Position numbers and translations under genes: made by a program. From Squalus acanthias (taxonomy: Eukaryota): DNA of 64,000 nucleotides. Where the stretch lies: positions 98,582,001 to 98,646,000 of the forward strand of contig CM059432.1 of NCBI GenBank assembly GCA_030390025.1, in the 5' to 3' direction. Below, one piece after another: positions 38,682-64,000 of the stretch. Within the stretch, counting starts at the first letter, position 1, and every line of letters begins with the position of its first letter. Under the pieces are notes generated by a model, which saw only the letters and a list, made by a program, of their open reading frames with translations, was not told the origin of the DNA and did not search any database.

Positions 38682-38692
38682 GTCCCTCCTGT
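38682..38692 (-). other. Polypurine tract of ERV-A
   Basis: ACAGGAGGGAC abutting the 3' LTR; identical in ERV-B. Confidence 0.75.
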
Positions 38693-39712: not shown

Positions 39713-39813
39713 GTAGAGTTCCAAACTTTTCTGAGTTTCTGAGAAAAATCACGGTCGATTACAACAATTCCGAGGTGCACGTGGAAAAACTGGAGTGACG
39801 CCATTTTGTCTGT

Positions 39814-42456: not shown

Positions 42457-43500
42457 TCAAATTCTGTGAAGGCGGACACAAGCTTTTCCCAACGGTGGGA
42501 GGGCACTGACCCCTTCCTTTGATCTGCTGCAGCCTGTCGCTGCTGCGCTGGGACTGGGATCTCCCTGGGCTGCCTTGACCTTGAACTTGCGCCTGGGGGC
42601 GTACGGGGGACTTACCCACATCTTTCTGGGCTGGGGTGTCCGACCTGACCTACGGAGAACTACCGGGGGCAGGAACTCCAGGACTGACGGACTGGGTTTC
42701 GAGACTTCCTCCGTGGCGACCCGTGGTCCCACCACAGTCGTTGGCTCCGCCTCCCCTGACTCCGCCTCCCTGAACTCGGGATCTGCAGCTTGTGGCACCG
42801 CCCTACTTGGCCCAGTAGGCGGCCCTTCACTCGCAGTCACTACCTCCCTCGAGGGCAAGACGTTCAAGGCGGGCGACTCGGGCTCTGAGGCTTCCATCGC
42901 CACGCCCTGTGGTCCCACCACAGCGGCTGGCTCCGCCTCCCCTAGCTCCGCCCCCCTGCGTTCGGGACCTGCAGCTTCGGCCTCCACCCTGTGTGGATCT
43001 CTATCTGCAGCCCCTGTCTCCCCTATACCTGAATCGGGGGCGACCCTTTCGTCCTCCGATTCCAGCTCCTCTTCGCTTGTGTCACTATCTTGGTCGAGCT
43101 CCTCGAACTCTTCCTCATCTGACTCCCAAACCAAATAAAGGATCCTACATTTTGCTAGGATGTCCTCTCCCCTGATGCATGCTGCTTTGCCTGCCTGTGT
43201 GCCCTGTGGCCCTACCCGGGCCTGCGAGTCCCCACTCGCAGGTTTGGCCCCTGTGGTTGGCCCTTGTGCACCTGGCTTATACAGTTTACACTGATTAAAA
43301 TCCTCATTCTCCCTGCTTCTGGCTACCCTGTAGGCTGCTTTTATCTCTCTAAGCTGCCCTTCTAGCCCATCCATTTTCCCCATTAAACGGGCGTTCTCTT
43401 CCTGCAAGGCCTGCTCTTTTAACCTGGCCTCCTTACAGGAGACCCCCTCCTGTGCGTGTCTTTTAAAAGGACACAGGTAGGCAGGCTGTGCGGGCTCTAG
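42457..43500 (-). CDS. ERV-A readthrough ORF: Pol N-terminal stub + Gag-like coiled coil + integrase C-terminal tail
   Basis: Open and in frame after the gag TGA-CTAG: LEPAQPAYLCP, then EARLKEQ..AAYRVA, then NQCKLYKPGAQG.. homologous to the ERV-B Pol C-terminus. Confidence 0.75.
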   Translation of the reverse strand, partial: LEPAQPAYLCPFKRHAQEGVSCKEARLKEQALQEENARLMGKMDGLEGQLREIKAAYRVARSRENEDFNQCKLYKPGAQGPTTGAKPASGDSQARVGPQGTQAGKAACIRGEDILAKCRILYLVWESDEEEFEELDQDSDTSEEELESEDERVAPDSGIGETGAADRDPHRVEAEAAGPERRGAELGEAEPAAVVGPQGVAMEASEPESPALNVLPSREVVTASEGPPTGPSRAVPQAADPEFREAESGEAEPTTVVGPRVATEEVSKPSPSVLEFLPPVVLRRSGRTPQPRKMWVSPPYAPRRKFKVKAAQGDPSPSAAATGCSRSKEGVSALPPLGKACVRLHRI

Positions 43501-45306: not shown

Positions 45307-45310
45307 TAGC

Positions 45311-46960
45311 TGTAAGGGGTGACCTGCGGCTCTGTGCTTAGCCTGGGTGCTAGTGCGGGGTTAGGCCTTGTTGCCTGTTCTGGTCTCCAGCCAGCCTGAT
45401 AACACTAGACACCTGTGAGTGGTTCGACCCACTCGCCCTTACGGTTCTGACACTGGACTTAGGTGCGAGAGCAATAATGCAGAGAAAGACTCAGGTAGAC
45501 CCGGTTGAATAGTGCGAAATGGAAAATCTTTATTGCATATTATTCAAGATTACGAGATACATGTCATAAGCACAGATTAACGACAGTACAATTTTACACA
45601 CAGTTATGAAACTAATTTTAGGGAAACGAGGAGCGCACGACACATCGTAGAAGGGGACACACATTATAATTATCCTTAAAACTTAAACCCTCCCCTATCA
45701 ATACCTGTCCTAATCTAGATTTGTAGGATCGAGACTCATGCTCACCACTCGTGATAACTCGGAGAATTCCAAAACTCTGCTCGGATGTTTTACCGCAGCA
45801 CCTGACTATCCACGTGTTGATCAGGGGTCTCTGTACCCCACTTGTTTACTCGTTTCTGCTCCGGCTAGCAGGCTGGACCGTCTGCTGTCATGAAGATCTG
45901 TGTTGCCCTTGGAGTTCGGACACCACTCGAAAAAGAGTCTTCCTGTGCCCTACAGCAGTTGTCTGTAGAACTCAAAGAAGGGTCTTCCTAGGCCAGTTGT
46001 GGAGTAGCCGATAAAATTCAAAGAAGTGTTTATTCGACTTACAGGCGCGGTCGGGGCTTACTGACCGTGGCGATGCGTATTGTCGTCTTCTTCTCTTCTC
46101 ATCTCATCTCATCTCATCTCATCTCCTCTCGGGCCTTCAGTTCCAACACCGTTTACCGACTTCTCGGGATGGTGCGCCCGCTTCCAGGCCTCACAGCCCG
46201 GTTCTCCACAGATCTTCGCGGCAAGCCACGAGGTTGTTCCTAGCGGATCAGAGTCCAGAGCCGTCAGGCAAGAGAATAAAAGTTCAGCAGCCTTCCAGCG
46301 AGTCAAAGCAGCAAGAGCAGCAAGCCAAAGATGGACGGTTGTACCTTACAGTTATAGTGCTGTAATTCCTCTTTTCCCGCCCAATCTTAATGTCTATCTT
46401 TTGTCAGGTTTTTGGCGCTCAAACTTCTTGTATGGGGTGATCTCAGTCTTTAATGGGTTTCGGTGATACTTGTAACTGTCTGAGTACCCGTTAATATTTC
46501 TCCCATTGTGGAACCGGCTAGTAGTCTCCCTGGAGGGGTTTTGGGGCTTCCAAATGCTTGCTGTAAGTACCCGCAAACGGCTCTCTCATCGTAGAGTCGT
46601 GGGGATTTTGCATATTAATGTCTTTGGATGGGTCCTTGATCGCTCAGTACAATAGCCCTTGTTTGCACCCGGGAGACCGATTCCAGTATTTATGTTTAAA
46701 ATGCAAACCCATCATGTCTTGTCAATTATCTCAAATGTGCTGAGTCCTGTATGATCTTGCACAAATGTTTATTGGAACGCCATCTTGTCTGCCCACTGAA
46801 AGTCTAGAACTTTCTGCCACGAGGCGTGGTGGCCATTTTACAGGCTGTTTGTGTCCGTTTTGAAACCTGACAGCATTCTGCTGAAATAAAGCTGTTTGTA
46901 CGAAACTTTATGTCTCCTTCTTATTTTTTTTTAAATCGCGTTAATTTTGCGAATTCTACA
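45311..46960 (-). repeat. ERV-A 5' LTR (1650 bp)
   Basis: TGTA..TACA ends; AATAAA on - at 45529-45534; (TCTCA)n tract. Confidence 0.95.
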
Positions 46961-47825
46961 GCATCCTATTGGATACTGTAACTTTAAAGACAGCAATGGG
47001 CTTGGTGTGGTAATATTTCTTCCATTATTGCAAATTCACTTAAATGTTTGGTTGCAGAGAGATCCTACACTCCTTTAAGCGTTGCTTGGCAAGCAGCTGA
47101 AATGATTTCCCATTTTAAGTTTGGGAATGTGCAGCTAAAGCTATATTTCAGGCCCATCTGTAAGCCCTTTCATCATGATGTGGATCTTTTAAATACTGGT
47201 TTCAGTAGCCCTTAATGTATCCAGTAGTTACTGCTTAAACTAACAATGGAAACAGGGTGGCTTTCCAGTTGTCCTACTTGCTAATTATTGTTTTAATTGT
47301 GCCTTACCTAATTTGACAGCAACCATTAGCGCCTGTGATTAACTTTCAGTGCAAAGTCAAGCAAGCAATAAATGTGCCCAAGGTTGATTTCCCGCCCAAA
47401 TTTCAATTTTCCTGCAGGCAGTAATTCTGTCTATATTCTAAAATGCAATGGAAAATCTAACAATGCGTATTGAATAACAGATCACTTTTATTAAACAGAT
47501 TTAATTCTGGCTCATATAATTTGCACTTACTGCTTTATACACTCAGATAGTCCATTGGTTACATGATCACACAAATGCTAACAGCAATATATGTTTTAAC
47601 TGTGTAGAACTATCTATCGCCCTGAACTGACTGCTGCCAATATCAGTCAATGATGCTTAAAGTCATCATTCCCTTGTCTGCTATTTTAGCAGAGGAATTA
47701 ACTCATTGAACATAAATGGGTTATTGTTGCATTGGAAGAGCGAACAGTAGAATGCCATGTGAATTAATTAATGTTTTTCTGCTAATACTGCAAACAGTAA
47801 TTTCTAGGCTTACATTAATGTCATA

Positions 47826-48471: not shown

Positions 48472-48805
48472 GTTTTTTTTAATTCATTCATGAGATGTGG
48501 GCGTCACTGGCAAGGCCAGCATTTATTGCCCATCCCTAATTGCCCTTGAGAATGTGATGGTGAGCCACCGTTTCAGAGGGCAGTTAAGAGTCAACCACAC
48601 TGCTGCGGATCTGGAGTCACATTTAGGCTAGACTGGGTAAGGACGGCAGATTTCCTTCCCTGAAGGACATTAGTGAACCATATGGGTTTTTACGACAATC
48701 CAGTAGTTTCATGGTAACCATTACTGATACTAGCTTTTTATTCCACAATTATTTAATTAATCGAATTTTTAAATTCCCCAGCTGCTCTGGTGGAATTTGA
48801 ACTCA
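48472..48805 (-). mobile_element. SINE-like bipartite derivative of the tRNA-headed LINE
   Basis: B box and 5' UTR fused to the 3' tail with an A-tail; head interrupted by the Harbinger starting at about 48808. Confidence 0.85.
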
Positions 48806-49166
48806 GAGGGGGAAAAATTAGGTCGCGCCCCATTTGGGGCGCAAATATCGTCTGGACGCAAATATTAGCGCCTGGCGCTAATTATCGGCACTGACTGGAA
48901 ACTTCACTTTTACCGCCCCGGGAGGTGAGTGGAGCGCTAAATCAGGCGCTGCACACCTGTCTTAAGGCGCAAAGGCCGAGCAGTGAGGCGCTAACTCAGC
49001 GCGCGAGCGCAGCGCAGCTGCTGCCAGTTAGCGAGGGAACACAGACACACTGGCGCCGGCCACTTCTTAAAGCGGGGGGGGCCAACTTGCTCCCCAGCCA
49101 CACCCTGCTCATTGCAGCCTTGAATCTCGGCCTGGAGAGACCTGTGAATCCATTTTGCTGCCAAGG

Positions 49167-51047
49167 ATGGAGAGGGTGAGAGAACGCGCTCATCGCTTCA
49201 CCGAGCGGGCCTTGGATGCTCTGGTTGGTGCGGTGGAGCGCAGAAGATGTATGCTCTTCCCTGAGAGTGGCAGGAGGCCTTTGCCACGCGAGTTCAGAAG
49301 AGTGTGGAGGGAGGTGGCTCAGAGCGTCTCCTCCAGGAGCATGGTGCCCAGGACCCATACTCAATGCCGCAAAAAGTTCAACGACCTCACTCGGGTCGTC
49401 AGGGTGAGTGGCTTTTTCTCAATACCTCTCCATCCCTCCATCTCAACCTCACTCTATGGCCAGAGGGTCTTAAAACCCCAATGCACAACACTCATCCAAC
49501 ACCTATGGCCCTTTCATGAAACACACACACACATTCCACACTTTGCATACAGTAAGGGCTATTCACCTATGGGAGGCACATCAGGCAAGACCATGGCTGC
49601 ATACAGTAAGGGCTATTCACCTATGGGAGGCACATCAGGCAAGACCATGGCTGCATACAGTAAGGGCTATTCACCTATGGGAGGCACATCAGGCAAGACC
49701 ATGGCTGTATATTTACTCAGATGCTGTCCTTTTTCTTACAGGCCAAGCTGGCGCATAATCGGAGGCAGCAGCAACGGACAGGTGGAGGGCGGCCTCAGCT
49801 GCAACCCCTCAGCGATCTTGAGGAGCGCGTCCAGAGGATTCTGGCAAGCCGGGTGATCGGTCCCGTCGCCACTGGAGACGCCGACCCCGTTCTGGACAGC
49901 AATGGTAAGGTCATCACCTTTTTGTCCTCTGTCCTTCCACTTGTCCCTCACAACACCAGCCTTTGACACTTTCAATCCAACTTGCTAACTCGCTGCACTT
50001 ATTCCTCCCTTACTGCCACCCTGTCCTCACGCTAAAGCCACTCTTGTACCTCCCTGCTTTCAGATGGTGATTCACCAGCTGAGGAGACGGGCCCTGAAGC
50101 TGCCACTGGGAGTGATGCTGCAGCCGAGGAGGAAGAGGAAGCCGGAGCATCAGTGCCACCCTCTCCCGAGGAAGCCCATGCCCACACTGGGAACACGCCT
50201 TCCCTGGAGGGGAGCAGGGGGGAAGGGTCTGATGAGGGTGAAGCTCCAGGACCCAGCGGGCTGCATCAACGCCATGGGGGGGGGGGGTAGGGAAGAACGG
50301 GGGCCTTCTCCCCAGAGGGAGAGTATGCCAGACACTCCTACCGCAATGGACGCAGAGGAGGAGCGGCTGATCGCAGAAATGAACACCCAGGCGGTGGGCA
50401 TGCACACTGAGCTCATGGGTGCAGTGGGAAGGGTGCCCAAATGCATTGAGTCACTGGCAAGGAGTGTGGAGCACTTCGCTGTAGCACAGGCGGATGCCAC
50501 ACTAACGCTTAGTGCTGCAATTCAGTCACTGGCTGCCGTGATCCCATCTCTGACTGCTCTCATACAGACTCAGATTGAGGCCACGCGAGCACAGACTGCT
50601 GCCAACCTCGATGGTTCGTGCACATGTCCCCGGGGCTGTCACCGCGCCGCAGCAGGCCAGCAATCTGTTCTCCAGCAGATTGCTCCGGATGCTGAAGTGC
50701 TGCCCCGTGGGAGTGCCAGTGTGTCGGGCGAGCAGGGAGTTGCTGTCCTCTCTCACGATGACAGCATTCCCGCTGCCAACACTGTCACTTCTCCACTGCA
50801 CTTGCCACCGCCTGTAGGACAGACTGCTGTCGCCCATGCAGAGTTGGTGCAGTCTGCAGCCGGGCCCTCCAGGCCCAGAACTGGTCGAGGCCGTCCTTCA
50901 GGGGCATCTGCAGTGTCAGGGTCTGACGAGCAGCAGCCTTCCACCAGCCTTGCTGCAGCCACTGAGGTCCCATTACGGAGGAGCAGTAGGGTTAGAAGGG
51001 GGGAAGTGCGCAAGGGAAGGAGATCACCCTCGAAGGGCAAAAAGTAG
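49167..51047 (+). CDS. Harbinger Myb/SANT-like protein; exons 49167-49403, 49742-49904, 50064-51047; apparent frameshift in or near the G-run at about 50280
   Basis: MERVRERAHRFTERALDALV..WREVAQSV..RTHTQCRKKFNDL; canonical GT-AG junctions. Confidence 0.75.
49544..49705. repeat. 3 x 54-bp perfect tandem repeat in Myb intron 1
   Basis: tgcatacagtaagggctattcacctatgggaggcacatcaggcaagaccatggc repeated three times. Confidence 0.95.
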
Positions 51048-51341
51048 GAGGTGTGACAAAATGCTGTTCATTTTTTTATTAAAGGTCGAGGTTCCTGGTC
51101 CAACTTTTGTTTAGTGTTTTGGACATTATCTCCAGGTTGTGAGAACCAGTTATGTTATTGACTGTTTCTTTGTGTTTATTTCTATGAGTTTGTCATGAGG
51201 AAGTGACACACACAGAGTTTGTAAAATAAATAAGTTTCTGTATTGAAAATATACATGGTTGGTGGTTGGAATTATTGGTGCCTTGGCCGGCTTAGGGGTT
51301 GCGTGCTGGGTTCATTAATGTTGTTAGCAATGGCAGGGGCC

Positions 51342-51437
51342 CTAGAAGCGTCTTGCTATTAGCCGTTGACGGACGGCCCTTGCAGTTTGACCATTGTGGG
51401 CCGCCCTCCCGCCTTGGTGCTGCTGATGATCATCCTC
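51342..51437 (-). pseudogene. 3' end of the Harbinger transposase split by ERV-B
   Basis: EDDHQQHQGGRAAHNGQTARAVRQRLIARRF*, continuous with the Glu/Asp tract at 63973-64000. Confidence 0.7.
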
Positions 51438-53032
51438 TGTAAGGGATTCTCTCCTGACCCTGCGTGTCTCGTAGCCTGTGAGATTCACGCGGCTCTGTGC
51501 AGCCTGTATGTCAGTGCGGGTCTAGGCCTGGTCTCCAGCCAGTCTGGGAACACTAGACACCCCTGTGAGTGGTTCGAATCACTCTCCCTTACGGTTCTAG
51601 ACACTGGACTTAGATGCGAGAGCAGTAATGGAGATAAAACTCATGTAGACTTGGTTTGAACGGTACGAAATGGAAAATCTTTATTGCATGATACTTAAAA
51701 TTATGAAATACATGTCATATGCACAGATTAATGACAGTACAATCTTACAAACAGTTATAATCACTCTTAGGGAAACGAGGAACGACCAGCACAACGTAAA
51801 TAGGGCACACATTACAAATATCCTTAATCTTTAAACCCTCCCCTATCAATGTCTATCCTAAACTAGCTTCGTAGGATCTCGAGACTCATGCTCACCACTC
51901 GTAATAACTCGGAGAAATCCCGAATAGCTGATCGGATGTTTTTCACCGCAGCACCCACGTGTTGGTCAGGAGATCTCCTGGTCCCACTTGTTTACTGCTT
52001 TTGCTGCTCGGTCAGTCGGCTGGACCGTCCGCTGTAGTGAAGACCTCTGTTGGTTGGATACAAGGTATGGTGGAGCACCGTTGTCAATATCGCTGATACG
52101 ATGTGTTTGCACAGTCCAGTTATCATCGATGCAATATGTCTTGTTAAAGAAGAAAACTTCCTGTCGAGAAGACTTGGCTGATCGACCTACAGGCGCGGTC
52201 GGGATTTACTGACCGTGGCGATGGATAAGGTCTTCTTCTCTTCTCCTCTCATCTCATCTCATCTCATCTCATCCCGGGCCTTCGGTTCCGCTGCCAGCTA
52301 CCAACATAGGTCTTTGCAACAGTCTTTTACACAGGAGCAGCCACGATGATAACAGCAACAAGCGGCAAGAGTCAAGAACACGAGGCAAGAGTCAAGAGCA
52401 AGAGAGAGAATGGACGGTTTGGGGCCTGCAATTATAGTGCACAGTTCTTCCGTTTCCCGCCCAACTACAATGTCCATTCTTTTGTTTAAGGTTTGGCGCC
52501 CAAAATGTCCTGTATGGGTGATCTCTGTCCTTAATGGGTTTCGGGGCTACTCCTGAATGTTTGAGTACCTGCTAATATTTCTCCCATTGTTAAATCGGTC
52601 GGTGTTCCCCCTGGAGGGGTTTGGGGCTTCCAAGTGTCCTGTATAACTACCTGCTAACGGCTCTCTCATCGTAGAGCCGTTGGGAGTTTACATATTAATG
52701 TCCTTTGGATGGGCCTTTGATGGCTTTCCTTTGTACCTGGGAGACCGATTCCAGTATCGATGTTTATACTGTAAACCCATAATGTCCTGTGTATTGTCTT
52801 CACTGTGCTGAATCGTTATCGATCCTGCAAAAAAAAAATGTTTATTGGAACGCCATCTTGTCTGCCTGTTGAAAAGTCTAGAATGTTCTGTCACGCGGTG
52901 CGGCGGCCATTTTACAGGCTGCTTGTGTCCAATTTAAACCTGACAGCATTCCGCTGAAATAAAAGCTGTTTTGAACGAAACTTTGTGTTTTCTCCTTATT
53001 AAAATGAAATCGCGATAATTGCGAATTCTACA
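51438..53032 (-). repeat. ERV-B 3' LTR (1595 bp)
   Basis: Direct repeat of 62373-63968; I found one substitution and one A-run indel; AATAAA on - at 51680-51685. Confidence 0.97.
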
Positions 53033-53043
53033 GTCCCTCCTGT
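53033..53043 (-). other. Polypurine tract of ERV-B
   Basis: ACAGGAGGGAC abutting the 3' LTR. Confidence 0.75.
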
Positions 53044-53456
53044 TGATGCGAATAACTCCGCTTATCGTATCAAAAATCTCAGTGGTGAGCAATCTTATCT
53101 CGATTTCACTCCGAATCCAGTAAATTAATCCCATAAATTTTAACTTCACTAGGGTCTCTGTGTCGTCCTCATTTCCCAAGAAAAATCACACTTTATATCA
53201 CCATAGGCATCATTTGCCCTTAAACTTACACCACTTGTTTTCCTTCCCGGCGTAACCAGGCCGATACCTCACGCATCACCTGTATATTTGTCTTTTATTC
53301 AAGGGAAGGAAAAACAAAACCCAAAAACCAAACAATCAACACCATCACCAAAATAAACAAATCCCAACTCTTAAACATATCGCGTTTCCAACGTATTTAC
53401 AATGAGTACAAACTTCCGCGGCGCACGTGGCGAGCGGGAGTGACGCCATTTTCCCA

Positions 53457-55808
53457 TTACACTGCGCTCTCATCGTGCACGCGCACGTAACGTTCTCGCC
53501 ACTCTCCCGTGTTCTCATGCTTGGTGAGGCGCTTGCCTCTTTTACAATGTATGAACAAAAGGTATACTACAATAAACACTTGACAGACGACTAAAATGTG
53601 GGAGGCTATTCTGACCCATGAGGGCACTTCAATATTAGTGAACAGGTTCCACCACGGTGGAACCACTATGTCCAAAATGTCTGTTCCAATTTCGACGGTT
53701 TTCTGTTCTAAGGTATAAAAATGCTTTTGTGACACCGCGACGGCTTTCAGAAGTTTGGTTAAATGCTCAGGGAGAGGGGGAATGAGGTATCCAAAATGCG
53801 CGACAAATCGCTGCAAGTCGGTGAAATTCTCTTTTACTGTGAGATGAACAGTGGATGGTTCAGGGATTGGGATAATTCGCTGTTGTGCTACTTGAACTTC
53901 AGCCCTGGGTTTAAAACAGAAACTGCTGTCACTCACCGGACACCGGCTACGGTTTCCATGCTGGTAGTGTTGCGCTGCAGTGGTAACACAATATGTTCCA
54001 CCCCCGATGTATGCTACCTGCGGAGGCACATGATCTTGTGCCATTGCCTCCATGGTGCAATTCATGGACTTGGCGCCAGCCGTTCTGAACCCGCACTGTG
54101 GTGTTAAAAAGGCATTCAAGTGCTGGGGGCACAGTATTATGTGTGCTCCCCTGCCACGACAACCAGAGAGATCTGTACCTGTCATCGTTTGCTCCCAGCG
54201 GATGACGTAAGGTGGAACCGCTGCATAACGAATGTGGGCTCCCCCCTGAATGACACCAATGTTCTCTACCCGATACACCGGGGCGGGCTTTGCTGTGTTG
54301 CCCAAAACCGGCATGCGTAATACTATTCCCATAATAGTATGGTTTGAACGTCCGCAGTCCACGGGGACTGGGTAAGCTTCTGAAGCTAGCCTGAGCTGGC
54401 ACGGACTTAATGCGTTCTGAAAAGGGTGGAGCGCCCGCAGGTGTTTGTTACTTATCCAGGACGGGACCAAACCTTGTTTTAAATCCTCCAAATTACTGCG
54501 GCCCTCGCCCAGTAACCACGCCCCGTAAAGCACGCACACCTCGTTCTGCGCAGCTTGATCGGATGCATTCCGATCTTCCCTGATCAGGGCATTTACCGTA
54601 CGCGCATGTTTCTCCAGCTCTGCTATAATCTCTTTTAAGTGTAGTGTCATGGCTTGGTCCTCGTGCAGACCCGACCCTACCACTTTATTCTCATCTGTAA
54701 GAATATCCTTTAACTGTGTTTTTAAACCATTAATCTGGGTCTGCAGCTCCACACTGTCTAGAGCGTTGACCACAGATGTCCCTGTGTTAAAAGCAGTGAA
54801 CGCATCGTTCACCAAACCCCTTCTTTGCCTCCCTACTTGGTCCAAAACTTCCTGCGGTGCGGTGTATAAACTTGTCTTATCAATTTCTGCAAAATCAAAC
54901 TCGTAAAATTGCCTGAACATCTTGGTCAACAGGACCTGGTACAACTGTTCCGTCTTTTTGGGGCACCACTCTGGTAACCGTACCTCAGTGAGATTTAAAA
55001 TCACCGAGGCCACCGCGTAATGTACCCCCTGAAATAGTATCTGGTCTGTGGGGACCAGTACCAAACCGTTCCCGGGTCCCTTACTAGTTTTAGGGCACCC
55101 TTCTTCCTCAGTTAGAACTACCGGGATCGTGGGCGGGGCTTTGCGTGGGCGCGTAATGAGCTCAGTGGCATTTACTGGGATCGGAGAGTATGGGGCTCCG
55201 CACCCCCTGGTGCTCGCATCCCACCTCATCCCCTGTCCGTTATCCTGCCACTGGTTAATAAAGAATATGGAGATGCCTTTGGGGCAAACGTACTTTGACC
55301 CCCACATACAAACATAAATCCCCTCATCCGGTTCCCACCATTTGTCCCAACAGACTTTCACTTGTCCGTCTGTCCCCGTAATTGTCCGATGGGTATTATT
55401 ACCCAGTCGCTCCCACTCAACCGAAGAGTTCCTCATAGTTTTGCTCAGCTTTCGCAGCCACCACCATCGGCTCAATGGGACATTCCCACTGCAGGTCAAA
55501 CAAATCCGTTTGCCGACGGTGACGCTGATCCTGGGTGCGATGATCCGTACTTTGGGGCACATTAAAGAAGTCTCTTTGTAGGCGAACCCCGATGTGCTGG
55601 AATACTCCGTTGAGTTCGTTCCCAGCCATCCTGGCCACCTTCCCTTGTGGAAATAGGTGCTGGTCCCCTCTGCCTTCCGTCTCCCGGTCCCATCCACCGC
55701 GATGGGGGCCGTGTCCCCGGAACATCCAAACACCACGACATCCTTGGTGTGGCCTCGATAGGCCAATCCACATCCGATTGCCACGAGCAATACTATAAGT
55801 CGTTCCAT
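53457..55808 (-). CDS. env: Envelope glycoprotein, 783 aa: signal peptide, Ig-like domain, class I F-like fusion protein
   Basis: Signal MERLIVLLVAIGCGLA; furin site RQRR at 327-330; fusion peptide and heptad; Cys-rich region; TM ILVVCQVFIVVYLLFI; many NxS/T sequons; YVRV in the tail. Confidence 0.92.
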   Translation of the reverse strand: MERLIVLLVAIGCGLAYRGHTKDVVVFGCSGDTAPIAVDGTGRRKAEGTSTYFHKGRWPGWLGTNSTEYSSTSGFAYKETSLMCPKVRIIAPRISVTVGKRICLTCSGNVPLSRWWWLRKLSKTMRNSSVEWERLGNNTHRTITGTDGQVKVCWDKWWEPDEGIYVCMWGSKYVCPKGISIFFINQWQDNGQGMRWDASTRGCGAPYSPIPVNATELITRPRKAPPTIPVVLTEEEGCPKTSKGPGNGLVLVPTDQILFQGVHYAVASVILNLTEVRLPEWCPKKTEQLYQVLLTKMFRQFYEFDFAEIDKTSLYTAPQEVLDQVGRQRRGLVNDAFTAFNTGTSVVNALDSVELQTQINGLKTQLKDILTDENKVVGSGLHEDQAMTLHLKEIIAELEKHARTVNALIREDRNASDQAAQNEVCVLYGAWLLGEGRSNLEDLKQGLVPSWISNKHLRALHPFQNALSPCQLRLASEAYPVPVDCGRSNHTIMGIVLRMPVLGNTAKPAPVYRVENIGVIQGGAHIRYAAVPPYVIRWEQTMTGTDLSGCRGRGAHIILCPQHLNAFLTPQCGFRTAGAKSMNCTMEAMAQDHVPPQVAYIGGGTYCVTTAAQHYQHGNRSRCPVSDSSFCFKPRAEVQVAQQRIIPIPEPSTVHLTVKENFTDLQRFVAHFGYLIPPLPEHLTKLLKAVAVSQKHFYTLEQKTVEIGTDILDIVVPPWWNLFTNIEVPSWVRIASHILVVCQVFIVVYLLFIHCKRGKRLTKHENTGEWRERYVRVHDESAV

Positions 55809-56092
55809 CCTTCCTTGGTTCCTGTGATCAGATAGAATGAGGTAGCCAGCCTCGCAAAAAGTCTCTGGCTTTTGTGACGGGTGAGCGGGTCCCCTGACCT
55901 CGCCTCACGTAAACTTCAACGTTCGCTAAATAGACTTCCTCTAAACCTAGCCTTAAAACTCCCATCATTTTGTCGTTATCTGTTAAAAACACTACAAACT
56001 TAACCTTATTAAAACTACTTAAAACTTTAAACTAAAACTTAAAACCTTAAACTAATAACTTTACAATGCCGCCCGTTCTCAGGGCGGCCCCT

Positions 56093-59000
56093 TTAAATCC
56101 TGAGAAGGCTGCTGCGAGCTCTTCCCGACGGTGGGAGGGCACTGACCCTTTCCTCTGATCTGCCGCAGCCTGTTACTGCTTCGATGTGGCCTGTCTCTAC
56201 CCGGGTTATCTTAACCTGAAACTTACGCCCTGGGGCAGCCTGTGGACCTGACCACATCTTCCTGGGCTGGGGTACTCTGCTTGACCTACGGGGAATTGCT
56301 ATGGGCGGGGGCTCCGTGACGGACGGACCGGGTCCCGAGACCTTCAACGGGATGACCTGGGGTTCCATCACAGGCGCCAGCCCCGCCTCCGCTGACTCCG
56401 CCTCCCTGACCTCGGGGCTGGCAGTTCGGGGCCCCGCCCTGCTCGGTCCAGCAGGCGGCCCTTCACTCGTGAACTCTGCCTCCCCTGAGGACTGGACGTT
56501 CAAAGCGGGCGGCCACACCTCTGGGAACCACATAGCGGCTGGCCCGGCCTCCTCTAGCTCCTTCCTCCTGTTGTCGGGACCTGCAGCTTGTGTGTCCACC
56601 CCGTATGGATCTCTACCTAGCGGCCCCAATCCTCCCAGACCGTTCCTCAGGAACCACCCGTCATCATCACTATGCTCATCTGCACTATCCTCATCTGACC
56701 AGGGTACCCTGGGGTCCTCGTCATCTAACCCCCAACTCCAGAAAAACGCTGCATGATCGTCCGGGATGTCCCTTCCCCTGATGCAAGCTGCTACGCCTGC
56801 CTGTGTGCCTTGTGGTCCTACCTGGGGCTGTGTTTTCCCATTGGCGGGATTTACCCCTGTAGTTTTCCCTTGCGCACCCGGCTGGTACAGTTTACATTGG
56901 TTTATGTGGAACCACTTAGTGCGCCGAGGTACTTTTACGGCGTAAACCATGGGACTCGCCTTGTCTACAATGTTGTAGGGTCCCATATACAGTGGTTCCA
57001 GACTCCCTACTCTGGCGTAGTTTCTGACCATAACCTGGTCTCCTACTTCCCACTCCCGCGTTTTGCGGGGTTCCAGCAACAAGCGATTGCCCTGATGCTG
57101 CCTTCCCATGTTCCCAGCCGCCTGCTCATAAACTTGCTTCAGGCGCTCCAAGAGAGTTTGGGCGAACTTGTCCCTGCTGATCTCTTGAAGCTGACCCTCA
57201 GTGAGCACCGGGGCTAGCACATGGGTGGGGGTTCGCATGAGCCTCCCAGTCATTACCTCGTGCGGGGAGTACCCCGTACTTTTTGACTGACTGGCCCGGA
57301 CCCCCATGAGGACTAAAGGCAGAACTTCCGCCCATTTTTGGGGCGAGTTCCTAGTCTCTTTCCTCAATTTCTCCTTCAGGGTCCGGTTCATACGTTCAAC
57401 AATCCCGGATGACTGGGGATTGTGTGCTACGTGCCACTTCCCTTCAATGCCCAAAAGCATGAGGGTGTTCTGCATCACCTGGCCGGTGAAATGACTCCCT
57501 TGGTCTGACTCCACAAAACGGGGGAGTCCCCACCGCGAGAACACTTCCCGGACCAAGATTTTTGCTGTACCCAGTGCCGTAGCTGTTCGACAAGGGAAGG
57601 CTTCCACCCACTTGGAAAACACATCCACCAGGACGAGGCAGTACTTATAACCTCCCTGGGTGGTGGGCAGGGGTCCTATATAGTCGATCTGTATCGACTG
57701 CCATGGTCCCTCTACCCTTCTTACGTGTCCCATGGGCACCTTCCTTTTCTGGGGGTCTGGGTTATTTGCAGCGCACACAAGACAGTTTGCACAGAACTCG
57801 CGGACTTGTTCCCTGAGCCCTGGCCACCATCCCGCTTGCTCTACCCGTTGCCAGGTAACCTCGGGCCCGGGGTGCCCTGCCCCTGGTCCCTCGTGAGCCA
57901 ACTGGAGGAATTCCCTCCTGTGCTGCTGCGGCACAACCCACTGCTCCTCGCGGAACAGCATGCCTTCCTTAACTGAGAGGGTTGCCGTACTGTACGGACC
58001 TTCTACCTGCCTCCCCTCAGCAATCGTTTTTAGGACTGCTTTTAGGGCGGGATCCTGGGCTTGGACGGTCTTAAGGTCTAGGGGCAATGCTACCCTGGTG
58101 TTCCCGGTATTCCCGTCCCCGCCTCGGACCGCTGCTATGGGTCCGGTTCTATAGGGGTTCCAGAAAGTACCGTCGTGGGCACCCTCCCTGGCTAGCGCAT
58201 CCGCCTGCCGGTTGCCCTCCCCACGGGGCTCTGTGGAGGAGTGAGCTTTCACCTTATGGATGAAAATCTCCCCTTCCTCCCCTACTGCTGCTGCTAAGAT
58301 CTTCTCCAGCAAGGGCTTTACCGTTAAAGGTCGCCCGTCCGCGGAGGTGTATCCACGGCGGGACCAAATGGCCAGGTATTCCGTACACGAATTGCAGGTG
58401 AACATACTGTCCGAGCAAATCGTGTATGGGGTTGGGAAAATGTCTGGGTGGGTTACCACGTACACCACGGCAGACAGCTCAGCCTGCTGCGCGCTCATGG
58501 TGCTAGGGAGCTTGATCGCCAGGGCAAGGTCTGCCGCAGGGTCATAAACTCCACACCCTGTGAGTCGCTCGCCAGCAGATACTGTGCTAGACCCATCAAC
58601 ATAAATCTCGCGCCCAGTGGGATGTATCCCGGCCCGTAAACCTATGTTGACGTCCCACACCCCCTCCACCGAACACCGGTGGGCTGTACCGGGGTATACC
58701 AAATTGGCCGCAAGCCTGGGCTCGCAAAGACCTTTTACTCTGATGTCCAACTGGGAGAGAAGAAGGGTCCAACGCGCAATGCGTGCGCTGCTTACGGTCC
58801 CGTCTTTAATCCTCCCATCCAGAAGCATCTTAGTTGGTGTGTGATGTGTGAGGAGAGTGATGGGAGAGAGCCCTGTGAAGATCGCTGATCTTTTCACAGC
58901 CCAATGCGTGGCTAAAAGGTGCCTTTCGCAATTGGAAAAACTTCTCTCCACATCCGTTAATACCCTGGATGAATAGACAACCGGCCTCAGCTTGCCGTGA

Positions 59001-60556
59001 CGCTCTTGGAGCAGTACGGCGCTTAAGCTGTCTCCGCTGGCAGCTACCTCCAGGAAAAACTCCTTCCCCCCATCTATGGCCCCTAAGGCTGGCGCGGTCT
59101 GCAGATCCCTTTTTAACTTCTCGAAGGCTGCTTGGCAGCCCTCGTCCCAAAGCCACTCTACCCCCTTATGGAGGAGTCGGAGGAGCGGCGCCGCTGTGGC
59201 CGCATAATCCTCGATAAAATCCCTGCAGTAACCGGTCAGTCCCAAGAAGGACCTCACACCCCTTACGTTGTTGGGAATCGGTAATTCTTGCACCGACTCC
59301 CTCCTGGCTTTGTCTATAGCTCTTTCCCCAGCGCGTAGGGTCAGTCCCAGGAATTTTACTTCCTGCTGACCGATACGTGCTTTCTTTGGGTTTACTTTAA
59401 AACCCTTTCTCGCTAACAGCTCCAATAACTCGTCCAGTAGTGGTCCGTGCTCCTCCCTTGAGTCCGTAAATAGGAGCAAATCATCCACATACTGTACTAT
59501 CTGATTGGGCTGACTGAACTCCTTTAAACTTCCTGCCATACACTGGTGAAAAATACTGGGGCTATTGTGGAAACCCTGTGGCAAGCAGTTCCACGTGTAC
59601 TGTTGCCCTTTAAACGTAAAGGCAAACTTGTACTGGTCCTCTCGCCGCAGCGGGATGGACCAAAAACCGTTCGAGATATCCAGCACCGTGAACGTGGTCG
59701 CGGACGCTGGGATGCTCCCTATTAGGTCAGCAACTGCTGCTACTGTGGGCGCGCAGGCGGGGATGTTACTGTTAAGGACTCTGTAGTCCACCGTGGCTCT
59801 CCACGAATTATCCGGCTTCCTAACCGGCCATAATGGGGAGTTCACGTGTGTGGCTATCGGCCTCAACACGCCCTGCTGCACCAAGGAAGACATTGCTGCC
59901 TCCATATCGGGTTCTGCTTCTTTGGGGAAGTTATACTGCTTTTGGGGTCGGGTCATGGGGTCCCCATCTACGCTGACCTCAAACCCGACCACCCTCCCAC
60001 AATCGTGCTTGTGGGTTGCAAACGCGTGCATATTATCTGTCACGTACGTTTGCATGTCCGTTGGGACATCTGCGACCATAAGCCTGAGGTCGTAGCCTCC
60101 GGATGGCTGTACGGTACACAGGACCCCTGTTTCTTCCTCCCCTTGAATCACCATTACCTCGCCTTTTTCACCTTTAGCCCCCCAGAGACAGTGATTTCTG
60201 AGGTCCACGAGGATCCCGTGTCCCGCTAGCAGATCGGACCCGAGAATACCTCTTCCACCCCCCTTTTGCCATGCCATCAGTATACACTTCCACTTAAGGC
60301 GAAGTGTCCCTAAACGAATGGATAGCGGGAGGGAAAACGTGCCAGCCTGTTCTTTCCCTGTGAACCCTGCTAGCGTGAATGGGACCTTGGTAGATAGCGG
60401 CGAGTCAAAAGGGTCATCTGTATGGATTATGGTGCAAGAAGCTCCCGTGTCCAACAAATAACTGCCCTTTTGTTTCTCTACCTCCATCTCCACCACAGGT
60501 CGCCTCCACGCATCATAGCTGAGCGGACACAGGTAGACGGGCTGTGCTGGTTCTAG
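56093..60556 (-). CDS. pol: Pol (PR-RT-tether-RNase H-IN plus long C-terminal tail), in frame with gag
   Basis: LLDTGAS; LPQGFHNSP; YVDD; degenerate RH (LEVAAS..VVYSSR); RH (YVDGS, AELSA, SDS, GNRQAD); HHCC, QIDYIGP, SDQGSHF, VERMNRTLK, GPY. Confidence 0.96.
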   Translation of the reverse strand, partial: LEPAQPVYLCPLSYDAWRRPVVEMEVEKQKGSYLLDTGASCTIIHTDDPFDSPLSTKVPFTLAGFTGKEQAGTFSLPLSIRLGTLRLKWKCILMAWQKGGGRGILGSDLLAGHGILVDLRNHCLWGAKGEKGEVMVIQGEEETGVLCTVQPSGGYDLRLMVADVPTDMQTYVTDNMHAFATHKHDCGRVVGFEVSVDGDPMTRPQKQYNFPKEAEPDMEAAMSSLVQQGVLRPIATHVNSPLWPVRKPDNSWRATVDYRVLNSNIPACAPTVAAVADLIGSIPASATTFTVLDISNGFWSIPLRREDQYKFAFTFKGQQYTWNCLPQGFHNSPSIFHQCMAGSLKEFSQPNQIVQYVDDLLLFTDSREEHGPLLDELLELLARKGFKVNPKKARIGQQEVKFLGLTLRAGERAIDKARRESVQELPIPNNVRGVRSFLGLTGYCRDFIEDYAATAAPLLRLLHKGVEWLWDEGCQAAFEKLKRDLQTAPALGAIDGGKEFFLEVAASGDSLSAVLLQERHGKLRPVVYSSRVLTDVERSFSNCERHLLATHWAVKRSAIFTGLSPITLLTHHTPTKMLLDGRIKDGTVSSARIARWTLLLSQLDIRVKGLCEPRLAANLVYPGTAHRCSVEGVWDVNIGLRAGIHPTGREIYVDGSSTVSAGERLTGCGVYDPAADLALAIKLPSTMSAQQAELSAVVYVVTHPDIFPTPYTICSDSMFTCNSCTEYLAIWSRRGYTSADGRPLTVKPLLEKILAAAVGEEGEIFIHKVKAHSSTEPRGEGNRQADALAREGAHDGTFWNPYRTGPIAAVRGGDGNTGNTRVALPLDLKTVQAQDPALKAVLKTIAEGRQVEGPYSTATLSVKEGMLFREEQWVVPQQHRREFLQLAHEGPGAGHPGPEVTWQRVEQAGWWPGLREQVREFCANCLVCAANNPDPQKRKVPMGHVRRVEGPWQSIQIDYIGPLPTTQGGYKYCLVLVDVFSKWVEAFPCRTATALGTAKILVREVFSRWGLPRFVESDQGSHFTGQVMQNTLMLLGIEGKWHVAHNPQSSGIVERMNRTLKEKLRKETRNSPQKWAEVLPLVLMGVRASQSKSTGYSPHEVMTGRLMRTPTHVLAPVLTEGQLQEISRDKFAQTLLERLKQVYEQAAGNMGRQHQGNRLLLEPRKTREWEVGDQVMVRNYARVGSLEPLYMGPYNIVDKASPMVYAVKVPRRTKWFHINQCKLYQPGAQGKTTGVNPANGKTQPQVGPQGTQAGVAACIRGRDIPDDHAAFFWSWGLDDEDPRVPWSDEDSADEHSDDDGWFLRNGLGGLGPLGRDPYGVDTQAAGPDNRRKELEEAGPAAMWFPEVWPPALNVQSSGEAEFTSEGPPAGPSRAGPRTASPEVREAESAEAGLAPVMEPQVIPLKVSGPGPSVTEPPPIAIPRRSSRVPQPRKMWSGPQAAPGRKFQVKITRVETGHIEAVTGCGRSEERVSALPPSGRARSSLLRI

Positions 60557-62368
60557 TCATGGGGCACTATTAGACGGTCCTGCGGCACCTACGGGGCCGG
60601 TTGCGACCGCCACCTGTCCACGCGCATTCAAAACCATCTTGCGCATGACTCCTAACACTGCTTCGAGGTCGTCGGGAGGGGTGGGTGCCTTGGCTTCCTT
60701 AGCCGGGACAGGCGCCTGGGTTCGGACCGCGGGATTTTTATCCTTGGAATCCTTCCAAGGGTTCCTGCAGTGCTTGCGCCAGTGCCCTGTCTTCCCACAC
60801 CCGTAACAGGCATTACTTGCCTGTGGGGCGCGATTACCCTCCTGATGCCACTCTCTTTGAGCCGGGGCTGCGGGTCGTACCTCATGTACTCTTCCCTTAA
60901 AGGGACGTGTCGTCATACCCCTTATGTTACGATAACCTAACGTGAGTCGATTCAAGACCGACTCTTCCGTAAGGTTGAGGTCATTGGGATCGAACCAGGC
61001 TTTTGCCTGCTCTCTAACGGCTGGTAAACTGTTGGCTATGATGCACCTAAGCCAATGAATTAAAGCGGCGCCTTCCACATCTTCGCGCTCGGGCGCACCC
61101 AGACAGCTGCGCTCATATACGGGCCACAGCCTGTCGGCAAAAACCTTCGGGGGTTCTCCCTCCATCTGCACTGTCTGTCCTACTCTAGCAAACGGACCTC
61201 CGTCGTTCGCCCCCACTACTTCTAGGACCTCATTTTTCAATTCCTCATAACTTTTATTACCCCTCTTGCTATCGCCTGAGAGACACTGAAGGACCGAGCT
61301 ATCTAACGAGAACAGCAGCATTTTTGCTGTCTCCCCATCATCGCAGCCGTTGATGGCTGCGGCTTGCTCAACTTCCCTGAAATGTACGGAAGGGTCGTCT
61401 ATCTCGGTCAGCTTCCTTACGTGGTTTATCATGGCTCTCAGCTGATGTGAACTGTGAGGCAACACCAGCTGTCCGAGGAGATCCCCCGGTTCTTCCCCAC
61501 CGTTTCTGCTTGGGCCCCTTTTAATACCCGTTACTGGATACAACGATCCCTTTTCTACCTCCTTTTCAACGGGCTCTTTTGCTTCTTCCGTTGCTTCCTC
61601 CCTAACCCAGGTTTCTGAATAGCTGGGTGGCGCGGAGGGCGCAGTGGCTACTACTTCTTCTGCTTTACTTGGTGGGGAATTTCTAAATCTCTCATTTACT
61701 AGCGGCTGGCGTGCCGACGGATTAATAAGGCACACCATGCCGTTCGCATTATTCACGGCCTTTTTGAGGCTCTCTATCTCTTTTTCGCAGGCGCTATGGT
61801 CGGCTCCCTGAAACTTATCCTCAAGGGCCAACTTATACGCCGACCTAACCCCCATTAAGCTCTCTTCTTGAGTTCTTATCTGGGCAGCTTGACGGTTACA
61901 TCTTTCCTTCATCCTACTCTCGTTTAATTTTGCTTCAGTGATCTGGCACTCGAGATACTCTACCCTTGTTTTAAGGTAACTGGAGACTTCCTGGCTTTCC
62001 TGGCGTAACTCATGTAAACTCTTAATGAGCGCCTCCCCTCCAGAAACCTTCTCCTCCATTTCCTCCTCTAACTGCTTGATTCGAGCGGTTAGCGCTGTAT
62101 TGGTCTGGTTTGAAATCTGAACCTGCCTTTTGTAGCACATAAGCCAGACTGCTTTCTCAACTGCCTTTTTATGCTCCTTACTATCAGTCCACCTTTCAGC
62201 TGCCTCTAGTGGGCTCTTATCCGCTAACAATTCGCTTATCCACTTTTTCGTTAGATTAACCTTTCCAAATACGTAATCCGCTATCTTTTCCTGCATCACA
62301 TTTCGTACAGTCATTCCAAAATCTAACACACTACCCTCTCGCTGCCAGTGTCCTGCCGCGGTCGCCAT
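60557..62368 (-). CDS. gag: Gag, 603 aa (coiled coil, PSAPPSY, capsid-like region, one CCHC knuckle)
   Basis: First ORF after the LTR; CYGCGKTGHWRKHC; ends in TGA-CTAG. Confidence 0.93.
   Translation of the reverse strand: MATAAGHWQREGSVLDFGMTVRNVMQEKIADYVFGKVNLTKKWISELLADKSPLEAAERWTDSKEHKKAVEKAVWLMCYKRQVQISNQTNTALTARIKQLEEEMEEKVSGGEALIKSLHELRQESQEVSSYLKTRVEYLECQITEAKLNESRMKERCNRQAAQIRTQEESLMGVRSAYKLALEDKFQGADHSACEKEIESLKKAVNNANGMVCLINPSARQPLVNERFRNSPPSKAEEVVATAPSAPPSYSETWVREEATEEAKEPVEKEVEKGSLYPVTGIKRGPSRNGGEEPGDLLGQLVLPHSSHQLRAMINHVRKLTEIDDPSVHFREVEQAAAINGCDDGETAKMLLFSLDSSVLQCLSGDSKRGNKSYEELKNEVLEVVGANDGGPFARVGQTVQMEGEPPKVFADRLWPVYERSCLGAPEREDVEGAALIHWLRCIIANSLPAVREQAKAWFDPNDLNLTEESVLNRLTLGYRNIRGMTTRPFKGRVHEVRPAAPAQREWHQEGNRAPQASNACYGCGKTGHWRKHCRNPWKDSKDKNPAVRTQAPVPAKEAKAPTPPDDLEAVLGVMRKMVLNARGQVAVATGPVGAAGPSNSAP
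62350..62367 (-). other. Primer binding site, tRNA-Arg type (ERV-B)
   Basis: TGGCGACCGCGGCAGGAC, complementary to a tRNA-Arg(TCG) 3' end GTCCTGCCGCGGTCG-CCA (tRNA sequence recalled, not looked up). Confidence 0.85.
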
Positions 62369-62372
62369 TTTC

Positions 62373-63968
62373 TGTAAGGGATTCTCTCCTGACCCTGCGT
62401 GTCTCGTAGCCTGTGAGATTCACGCGGCTCTGTGCAGCCTGTATGTCAGTGCGGGTCTAGGCCTGGTCTCCAGCCAGTCTGGGAACACTAGACACCCCTG
62501 TGAGTGGTTCGAATCACTCTCCCTTACGGTTCTAGACACTGGACTTAGATGCGAGAGCAGTAATGGAGATAAAACTCATGTAGACTTGGTTTGAACGGTA
62601 CGAAATGGAAAATCTTTATTGCATGATACTTAAAATTATGAAATACATGTCATATGCACAGATTAATGACAGTACAATCTTACAAACAGTTATAATCACT
62701 CTTAGGGAAACGAGGAACGACCAGCACAACGTAAATAGGGCACACATTACAAATATCCTTAATCTTTAAACCCTCCCCTATCAATGTCTATCCTAAACTA
62801 GCTTCGTAGGATCTCGAGACTCATGCTCACCACTCGTAATAACTCGGAGAAATCCCGAATAGCTGATCGGATGTTTTTCACCGCAGCACCCACGTGTTGG
62901 TCAGGAGATCTCCTGGTCCCACTTGTTTACTGCTTTTGCTGCTCGGTCAGTCAGCTGGACCGTCCGCTGTAGTGAAGACCTCTGTTGGTTGGATACAAGG
63001 TATGGTGGAGCACCGTTGTCAATATCGCTGATACGATGTGTTTGCACAGTCCAGTTATCATCGATGCAATATGTCTTGTTAAAGAAGAAAACTTCCTGTC
63101 GAGAAGACTTGGCTGATCGACCTACAGGCGCGGTCGGGATTTACTGACCGTGGCGATGGATAAGGTCTTCTTCTCTTCTCCTCTCATCTCATCTCATCTC
63201 ATCTCATCCCGGGCCTTCGGTTCCGCTGCCAGCTACCAACATAGGTCTTTGCAACAGTCTTTTACACAGGAGCAGCCACGATGATAACAGCAACAAGCGG
63301 CAAGAGTCAAGAACACGAGGCAAGAGTCAAGAGCAAGAGAGAGAATGGACGGTTTGGGGCCTGCAATTATAGTGCACAGTTCTTCCGTTTCCCGCCCAAC
63401 TACAATGTCCATTCTTTTGTTTAAGGTTTGGCGCCCAAAATGTCCTGTATGGGTGATCTCTGTCCTTAATGGGTTTCGGGGCTACTCCTGAATGTTTGAG
63501 TACCTGCTAATATTTCTCCCATTGTTAAATCGGTCGGTGTTCCCCCTGGAGGGGTTTGGGGCTTCCAAGTGTCCTGTATAACTACCTGCTAACGGCTCTC
63601 TCATCGTAGAGCCGTTGGGAGTTTACATATTAATGTCCTTTGGATGGGCCTTTGATGGCTTTCCTTTGTACCTGGGAGACCGATTCCAGTATCGATGTTT
63701 ATACTGTAAACCCATAATGTCCTGTGTATTGTCTTCACTGTGCTGAATCGTTATCGATCCTGCAAAAAAAAAAATGTTTATTGGAACGCCATCTTGTCTG
63801 CCTGTTGAAAAGTCTAGAATGTTCTGTCACGCGGTGCGGCGGCCATTTTACAGGCTGCTTGTGTCCAATTTAAACCTGACAGCATTCCGCTGAAATAAAA
63901 GCTGTTTTGAACGAAACTTTGTGTTTTCTCCTTATTAAAATGAAATCGCGATAATTGCGAATTCTACA
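62373..63968 (-). repeat. ERV-B 5' LTR (1596 bp)
   Basis: TGTA..TACA ends, followed by the TSD CCTC. Confidence 0.97.
63367..63434 (-). promoter_or_regulatory. Candidate LTR core promoter: TATAA plus two E2F-type sites / GC box
   Basis: TATAA (63367-63371, - strand), TTTCCCGC (63388-63395), TTTGGCGC (63427-63434); same arrangement in the ERV-A LTR. Confidence 0.5.
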
Positions 63969-64000
63969 CCTCCTCGTCCTCTTCCTCCTCTTCCTCCTCC

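Follow-up and report, generated by a model that had tools for sequence, protein, structure and literature searches.

A complete endogenous retrovirus (ERV), here called provirus A, lies on the minus strand at positions 51438-63968 of a 64,000-nucleotide stretch of the Squalus acanthias genome (assembly GCA_030390025.1, contig CM059432.1, positions 98,582,001 to 98,646,000 of the forward strand; this whole stretch is the window, and its coordinates are used throughout), and it raises the question of whether a provirus with Pol and Env features of lokiretroviruses (lokis) is in fact a loki. The initial annotation of this DNA, made from its letters alone, had taken A for a very young lokiretrovirus-like provirus in a probable cartilaginous fish, treating the combination of two RNase H (RH) domains with an Env resembling the fusion (F) protein of Mononegavirales as the loki hallmark, and had proposed a new host group, remarking that lokis were not reported from sharks. 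That remark agrees with the screen in PMC7947760, where lokis were found in none of the six chondrichthyan genomes (its Fig. S1), and the predicted host agrees with the closest relatives of A, which come from elasmobranchs only. Neither a paper on shark lokis nor one describing an F-type Env for ERVs resembling snakehead retrovirus (SnRV) turned up in literature searches, with subscription papers, Repbase and Dfam outside their scope.

The lokiretrovirus assignment itself does not hold. Provirus A is best taken as a member of a known group, the SnRV-related grade termed clade Huo, and the explanation that fits best, with a probability of roughly 0.6, is that of a recently integrated, class III-like ERV of this grade. 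Its lineage, shared by elasmobranchs, frogs, coelacanth and eels, would branch from the base of Retroviridae or close to it and would have kept traits shared with lokis.

Phylogenetic Position of Provirus A

The pol frame of A (56093-60556, minus strand, as are all features of A given below unless stated otherwise) encodes 1487 residues. In order, these form an aspartic protease (PR) with LDTGA, assigned by Pfam and a residue check (60224-60508), a reverse transcriptase (RT) of the Retroviridae type with LPQG and YVDD (59147-59944), a tether that is a degenerate Ty3/gypsy-type RNase H (58721-59146), a second RNase H with catalytic residues (58178-58609), a loki-like integrase (IN) with HHCC, DDE and GPY motifs (56873-57934) and an acidic, proline-rich tail of 259 residues (56093-56872). 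Pfam recognizes RVT_1, RT_RNaseH/RT_RNaseH_2 at 470-602, RNase_H at 650-793, Integrase_H2C2 and rve, and its protease matches are weak (E 4e-4). The annotation's claim of recognizable catalytic motifs is borne out for all four enzymes, as every expected residue is present (PR D36; RT D293, D358, D359; RH D654, E693, D716, D786; IN HHCC, D958, D1018, E1054), and so is its claim of a degenerate RNase H followed by a second one, the tether being without the first RNase H aspartate. A tether plus second RNase H is, however, an arrangement common to all retroviruses.

The position of A was assessed in trees that held three lokis, SnRV, foamy viruses, gamma-, epsilon- and deltaretroviruses, ERV-L-like elements and Ty3/gypsy elements, with near-duplicate and partial rows excluded. 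The SnRV reference (L001) has an RT equal by eye to the printed SnRV row, the loki references (L041-L043) were assigned by eye match to printed Loki rows, and the exogenous retrovirus rows (L002-L040) were labelled from length and motifs. In the RT tree (59 rows, 268 columns, mixture model) A falls inside Retroviridae with support of 100/95, the lokis fall outside at 100/99 and the gypsy rows are apart at 100/99, while A groups at 85/95 with frog, coelacanth and further rows, one of which resembles published eel ERVs by eye. Approximately unbiased (AU) tests on RT (29 rows) rejected the grouping of A with lokis (p 0.036). The RT of A also carries LPQG and PTVA, motifs in place of which the printed loki rows compared show C/L/M/T-PFG and, for the most part, SRWPM or SGWPV, and a CCHC knuckle is found in the Gags of A and SnRV and is absent from both of the two loki Gags checked. 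Since it fails the RT test that defines lokis, A is not a lokiretrovirus; several of its traits are loki-like, but it is a retrovirus. It is not a Ty3/gypsy element (Metaviridae) either, given the separate gypsy RT rows and the degenerate state of its Ty3-type RNase H. Foamy viruses make Pol independently of Gag and have a Gag without CCHC, and A does not fit a spumaretrovirus in these features, having an in-frame stop junction between gag and pol and a CCHC knuckle; the lineage was not joined to foamy viruses in the RT tree, and that grouping gave an AU p of 0.124.

The lineage was also placed in trees of the whole Pol, from RT to IN. With 854 columns, 32 rows and LG+G4, lokis and gypsy elements are apart at 99/99, the lineage forms a clade at 82/93 and this clade is sister to all other sampled retroviruses at 80/96; AU tests rejected both the lineage with lokis (p 0.022) and A with lokis (p 0.023). 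A mixture-model tree of 23 rows, from which delta and two long gypsy rows were among those dropped, kept the same shape, with the lineage outside the other retroviruses at 87/96. A basal position of the lineage in Retroviridae is hence favoured, with moderate support.

Several points weigh against this placement. The base of Retroviridae is not settled by RT alone, where the grouping of the lineage with lokis is not rejected (p 0.10), and the grouping with SnRV is rejected neither on RT (p 0.45) nor on whole Pol (p 0.09). Under the mixture model the lineage clade itself received 53/94 and the branch that separates lokis and gypsy elements from it 75/97. The lineage is not one group in the IN tree, and the join to loki IN found there (97/98) is made by frog and coelacanth rows, not by A. 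The trees are without Odin elements, amphibian and lamprey lokis, fish foamy-like ERVs and alpha-, beta- and lentiviruses, and contain a full IN from one loki only. Moreover, slowly evolving sequences can drift toward the outgroup in trees. A wider grouping of the lineage with SnRV and the fish group gave p 0.32 on RT. Should the basal placement fail, the family would still be a large and young group of ERVs with an unusual Env, although a less surprising one.

The Envelope Protein

The env frame (53457-55904) contains, from the ATG at 55808, a gene for an F-type class I fusion protein of 783 residues (53457-55808) with a hydrophobic N-terminus, 10 N-glycan sites, a furin site RQRR at residue 327 (54819-54830) followed by a fusion peptide and a heptad repeat, and a transmembrane helix at about residues 736-755 (53544-53603). 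No Pfam family was above the cut-off for either Gag or Env of A. An AlphaFold model built from a 38-row alignment has a mean pLDDT of 61, with a core (residues 240-650) mostly at 70-95 and a poor N-terminus, and it matches the F proteins of paramyxoviruses and pneumoviruses (Foldseek, 1ztm, E 5e-11; Newcastle disease virus F, VIA Z 12.2, root-mean-square deviation 18.1 over 368 residues) and foamy Env (VIA Z 8.5). On the strength of this model, Env of A folds like paramyxovirus and foamy F, which bears out the F-like Env of the initial annotation. The fusion fold is that of foamy Env gp130 and the paramyxo- and pneumovirus F proteins (PMC11468914; 8RM0, 8RM1, 1ZTM, 3MAW) at an identity of 7-16%; snakehead, SnRV and loki go unmentioned in the available sections of PMC11468914.

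Sequence profiles place this Env nearest to that of lokis. The family profile matched loki Env best among the references (hhalign 98.2%, E 4.7e-14) and SnRV Env over the F core (78%, E 1.7e-5), with 66.6 versus 17.5 bits, and its top match in the PDB was the foamy Env TM 8rm1_D (E 0.0055). The link to SnRV Env is made by profiles only, direct BLASTP of the two proteins being not significant (best E 0.047), and modelling the SnRV Env core from its sequence alone gave too low a confidence (pLDDT 38.6) for use. Among viral models in BFVD, that of A matched Env of the walleye viruses WEHV1 (E 5e-12) and WDSV (9e-9) and of feline foamy virus. The F-type fold is therefore real yet not specific to lokis, because foamy and WEHV1/WDSV Envs, and to a lesser degree that of SnRV, match it as well, and its combination with a dual RNase H loses its value as a loki hallmark. 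The walleye virus Env, termed 'distinct' and a recent development in PMC9967133, may instead be F-type, judging from the model matches. The BFVD matches also included a fish filovirus glycoprotein, lispivirus glycoproteins and baculovirus F. SnRV Env (L001:6131-9532) appears F-type by profile match, and an Ig-like motif near its N-terminus was seen by eye only.

An immunoglobulin (Ig)-like head is probable at the N-terminus of the Env of A (55284-55556), where residues ~85-175 show the pattern L-x-C...W...D-x-G-x-Y-x-C. The tests are each weak but concordant: the best phmmer E was 0.075, with top matches that are mostly Ig chains, the model over residues 30-175 matched Ig domains with a VIA Z of ~5, and frog relatives of this Env match Pfam Ig families at E 0.012-0.045. 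Counting against it, the domain in A itself is under every significance threshold and the N-terminus is the low-confidence part of the model. The closest Env relatives are from skate (74-75%) and sawshark, then from other sharks and frogs, and a frog Pol (P0005) is followed by an Env of the same Ig-headed family (48% over 107 residues). The skate Env homologue falls in one chordate cluster at 0.77 in Atlas, which is a lead only. Three sawshark gene models (P0002, P0003 and P0054) fuse pieces of this Env with Niban 1, a zinc finger and cadherin-related 5, and are probably annotation artefacts at insertions.

Origin of the Loki-Like Traits

The domains of A disagree about its relatives. Identity of A to SnRV exceeds that to lokis in RT (43.5 versus 34%) and in the second RNase H (32 versus 28%), and the reverse is true of the tether (40% loki versus 28% SnRV; 103 versus 58 bits) and of IN (37% loki versus 31% SnRV; 250 versus 135 bits). 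In the IN tree, in which CGIN1/NYNRIN were not among the rows, the lineage with SnRV is rejected (p 0.009) and the lineage joins lokis at 37/74. In the RT and IN phylogeny suggested by the initial annotation as a check, A is placed by its RT in Retroviridae, not among lokis or Ty3/gypsy elements. The tether tree arranges the lineage as a ladder set between lokis and the other retroviruses; its grouping with lokis is rejected there (p 0.026).

One explanation of this disagreement is that the lineage may preserve the ancestral retroviral design. A bolder form, which is held tentatively and given rather less than even odds, makes it the earliest branch of Retroviridae, with a lightly degraded tether, a loki-type integrase, readthrough at UGA and an Env of the F type as ancestral features, has env gained once before lokis and retroviruses split, since such Envs occur in lokis, foamy viruses and SnRV as well as in the walleye epsilonretroviruses, takes the Envs of gamma- and betaretroviruses as later replacements, and has the lineage still replicating in sharks with a pol-less satellite. 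A different explanation, which is unlikely, is that A descends from an ordinary retrovirus of the SnRV clade, the source of its gag, PR and RT, whose ancestor took IN and env from a lokiretrovirus, so that the loki-like traits were acquired. The retroviral RT, an IN that rejects SnRV and allows lokis, and an Env nearest to that of lokis are what such a chimera would give, and PMC7947760 reports that retroviruses have swapped RNase H and IN domains. The loki-like traits do not form one block, however, but are interleaved, with the readthrough context upstream of RT and then tether, IN and env, while the RNase H between the loki-like parts is itself not loki-like. The ladder of the tether tree and the presence of F-type Envs in SnRV, foamy and walleye viruses also speak against a chimera.

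Four scenarios for the origin of retroviral env are laid out in PMC7947760, and PMC9040795 prefers separate gains of env, since loki and canonical Envs showed no similarity. A joins a Retroviridae RT to an Env homologous to that of lokis, which, in one retroviral lineage at least, removes the premise of no similarity and opens the origin of env to testing by trees and structures. A single gain of env, if true, runs against the independent-origin scenario preferred in PMC9040795.

Copy Number, Age and Spread of the Family

The family of A is large and recent. In the 3.71-Gb assembly its gag-pol junction has 710 matches and its LTR (long terminal repeat) end 1486, which supplies the copy count suggested with the initial annotation and amounts to ~700 internal copies; genome searches with RT and with env each gave at least 40 matches at 99-100% identity. 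The two LTRs of A are one substitution (a transition) and one one-base indel apart, consistent with the ~2 differences and the very young age first noted. The LTR pairs of seven other full-length copies differ by 2, 2, 0, 2, 0, 0 and 3 substitutions, a 4-bp target-site duplication (TSD) is present in six of these seven, and their LTRs (1538-1625 nt) differ from that of A by 8-25 substitutions. Because the pairs are near-identical while the LTRs differ between copies, the data point to many source genomes that inserted recently. Rates of 2.2e-9 (PMC7947760) and 2.2e-10 (PMC4422223) give 0.14-1.4 million years (My) for A from its one LTR substitution and 0.18-1.8 My from the 10 substitutions pooled over eight LTR pairs, ages that are rough, as RT error might account for a lone change. 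With regard to the invading-ERV (ERVi) features in PMC10435555, A has gag, pro, pol and env in an intact state, and identical LTRs are found not in A but in three of the seven other copies.

Three routes of ERV amplification are laid out in PMC10435555, and the state of env bears on the choice among them. Sixteen env loci beside the top RT matches comprise 10 that are open, four that are broken and two without env at the expected place. Distinct codon changes in env among 14 copies numbered 74 at 540 synonymous sites and 21 at 1809 nonsynonymous sites, a ratio of nonsynonymous to synonymous rates (dN/dS) of ~0.085, compared with 32 and seven changes and a dN/dS of ~0.07 for pol among nine copies; between the env of A and that of an older relative, element B, the uncorrected value was ~0.11. 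Constraint on env among young copies is a standard sign of reinfection. Since env is under strong purifying selection, its dN/dS points to recent reinfection of the germ line by the family, which is further evidence that the germ line of a cartilaginous fish was invaded recently and in an envelope-dependent way; to be set against this, the copies used were picked from the best RT matches, which favours young elements. Whatever the placement of the family, it might instead spread as a germ-cell retrotransposon that merely carries env along. High copy number is typical of intracellular spread and the ~700 copies would suit it, but this is improbable in view of the env constraint both among young copies and between A and element B, and because the successful deletion class of the family drops pol and keeps env open in four of four copies, the reverse of the usual loss of env.

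This class is exemplified in the window by element B (37057-46961, minus strand, TSD GCAT), an older, pol-less family member 4.5 kb from A, with LTRs that are 15 substitutions and two indels apart and an env with two in-frame stops. Its identity to A is 88% across env plus the 3' end of pol and 78% across gag. It has a short insert in place of pol and a variant primer-binding site (PBS) with four mismatches to the tRNA-Arg gene checked, and its 3' untranslated part contains a Harbinger fragment (39380-39725). The pol-less gag plus env class is common: loci with LTR starts ~7.6 kb apart number 16, compared with 23 full-length pairs, in a hand count over the first 100 LTR matches. In four such copies (L095-L098) env is open in all four and gag in three, the LTR pairs differ by 0-1 substitutions, and the junction sequence is that of element B, yet gag, env and LTR are of the A type (97-99%). 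Past the gag stop, a frame of 373-388 codons remains open in them, with the Pol tail at its end. These features suggest that the class is an old satellite recombining with its helper and that the Pol tail has a role; the class presumably borrows Pol in trans.

Sequencing runs were also considered: 20 runs with six organism labels contain 56-76% of sampled A words, and the four runs examined, which consist of short contigs, cover A end to end. No RNA run was listed among those containing A, and two of the four are RNA by guess only. No transfer of A between species is claimed, because the neighbouring Harbinger element is covered too, so that close host kinship explains the coverage of A.

Comparison With Known Systems

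The nearest published sequence is le_er_ERV4 from little skate (Xu et al., 2018; PMC6001957), a 138-residue RT fragment ~88% identical to A by eye count. This 414-nt fragment comes with no env, LTRs or copy data; its deposit in 2018 under the heading of an ordinary ERV weakens the proposal of a new host group. The name le_er_ERV4 was not found among the labels of the S2 tree in the portion of PMC6001957 available. RT motifs of the lineage are shared by ca_mi_ERV1, an_ro_ERV1 and ap_sp_ERV9; the text of the S2 tree has them close to snakehead retrovirus in its Huo section, where relatives from turtle, eel and elephant shark are named (PMC6001957). PMC4422223 describes CmiERV lineage I, a lineage of elephant shark that is related to SnRV. 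The relevant passages of PMC6001957 and PMC4422223 give no F-type Env or loki-like IN for the Huo/SnRV-like group. In a search of 12 of the 14 supplement files of PMC10435555, the RT motifs matched the SnRV row only; the screen in that paper required a recognized Env 'tm motif' and could, we infer, have missed such elements. An analysis of vertebrate ERVs is to be reported separately according to PMC13524379. In the data compared, this lineage was previously known in elasmobranchs from a fragment, and the present family supplies full-length, near-contemporary sequences of it.

SnRV (10,688 nt; PMC12193657) resembles A in having gag, stop and pol in one frame, a coiled-coil Gag with one CCHC, the closer RT, a homologous Env F core and, by eye, the Ig-like motif. 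It differs in its TAG stop, its accessory open reading frames (ORFs) and an env frame of 1134 codons with a long tail, as against the 783-residue Env of A, and in the rejected grouping of IN. Between env of A and the end of the 3' LTR there is no sense ATG ORF of more than 66 residues, only ORFs of 43-66 residues, on an unspliced reading. The lokis (PMC7947760; L041-L043) share with A the tether plus RNase H, F-like Env, loki-like IN and TGA-CTAG, and differ in the RT, which for A lies outside the loki clade, in the CCHC of the Gag of A, and in Env, that of A having ~230 extra N-terminal residues with the Ig-like domain whereas the loki L042 Env begins at the F core. That A is nonetheless a genuine lokiretrovirus with a divergent RT, in a host group new to lokis, is the least probable explanation and largely refuted, since these shared features, an Env closest to that of lokis and the failure of RT alone to reject lineage plus loki (p 0.10) are met by an RT inside Retroviridae (100/95), by rejection of A with lokis on RT and of both A and the lineage with lokis on whole Pol, by the RT motifs LPQG and PTVA, unlike those of printed loki rows, and by the missing CCHC of the two loki Gags. 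Foamy viruses differ from A in the readthrough Gag-Pol and the CCHC knuckle.

Structure and Proposed Replication Cycle

Provirus A has the Retroviridae layout of LTR-gag-pro-pol-env-LTR with PBS, polypurine tract and TSD, bounded by TG at 51438 and CA at 63968. As first described, its gag, pol and env are uninterrupted, with gag and pol split by one TGA. The 5' LTR (62373-63968) has 1596 nt, TG...CA, and the 3' LTR (51438-53032) 1595 nt; TATAA at LTR nt 1275 and AATAAA at LTR nt 1349 suggest a long U3. The TSD is CCTC on both sides (51434-51437 and 63969-63972, plus strand). As the site of A is CCT-rich, paralogous empty Harbinger sites were checked, and because five of five carry a single CCTC, the duplication is exactly 4 bp, in agreement with the initial reading. 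The polypurine tract (53033-53045) adjoins the 3' LTR, and the PBS (62350-62367), 5 nt inside the LTR, corresponds to tRNA-Arg(UCG), with 15 of 15 nt identical to the end of a host tRNA-Arg(tcg) gene plus CCA. Genes for tRNA-Arg(UCG) and tRNA-Ser(GCU) occur in 1.6-kb tandem units on one contig (39.0-42.2 Mb); this array pattern has 427 matches genome-wide and the primer tRNA is therefore highly multicopy.

The gag frame (60557-62419) has 620 residues from stop to stop and 603 from the first ATG (60557-62368), with an N-terminal coiled coil, PSAP and one CCHC knuckle, which was the only match in a Gag sequence search; similarity to SnRV Gag is weak (pairwise E 7e-5). The true start is uncertain from sequence, since the first ATG (62368-62366), in a strong context, overlaps the TGG of the PBS, while the ATG at 62296 is the start also open in element B, which has a stop before the third ATG. 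Pol follows in the same frame after one TGA, and the stop with its CTAG (60553-60559) is a probable readthrough site, UGA-CUAG being a leaky stop context; the same TGA-CTAG is found in loki L042, whereas SnRV uses TAG.

In the proposed cycle, transcription would start from the 5' LTR, genomic RNA would be translated into Gag and, where UGA-CUAG is read through, into Gag-Pol, and reverse transcription would be primed by tRNA-Arg(UCG), which the PBS matches, before integrase generates the 4-bp duplications seen at the target sites. Env would probably be made from a spliced RNA and cleaved at RQRR to act as an F-type fusogen, as its modelled fold predicts, with the Ig-like head as the probable module for attachment and receptor binding. 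Spread in the germ line would be mainly by Env-dependent reinfection, to judge from selection on env, and the gag plus env class would be copied in trans by the Pol of full-length helpers, as its structure suggests; the Pol tail frame is kept open in this class.

Neighbouring Sequence

A is inserted in the acidic 3' tail of a young transposase gene (48700-51437 and 63969-64000) of an element that we take to be of the Harbinger type from its pairing of transposase and Myb/SANT genes. The Myb/SANT partner gene is at 49071-49856, three tandem 54-nt copies that are 99% alike lie inside the element at 49544-49711, and the element is present in at least 40 copies that are 99% identical. Elsewhere in the window are a broken long interspersed element (LINE) with RT and endonuclease frames (32643-36113, minus strand) and, over positions 1-32000, several repeats of the LINE and short interspersed element (SINE) types.

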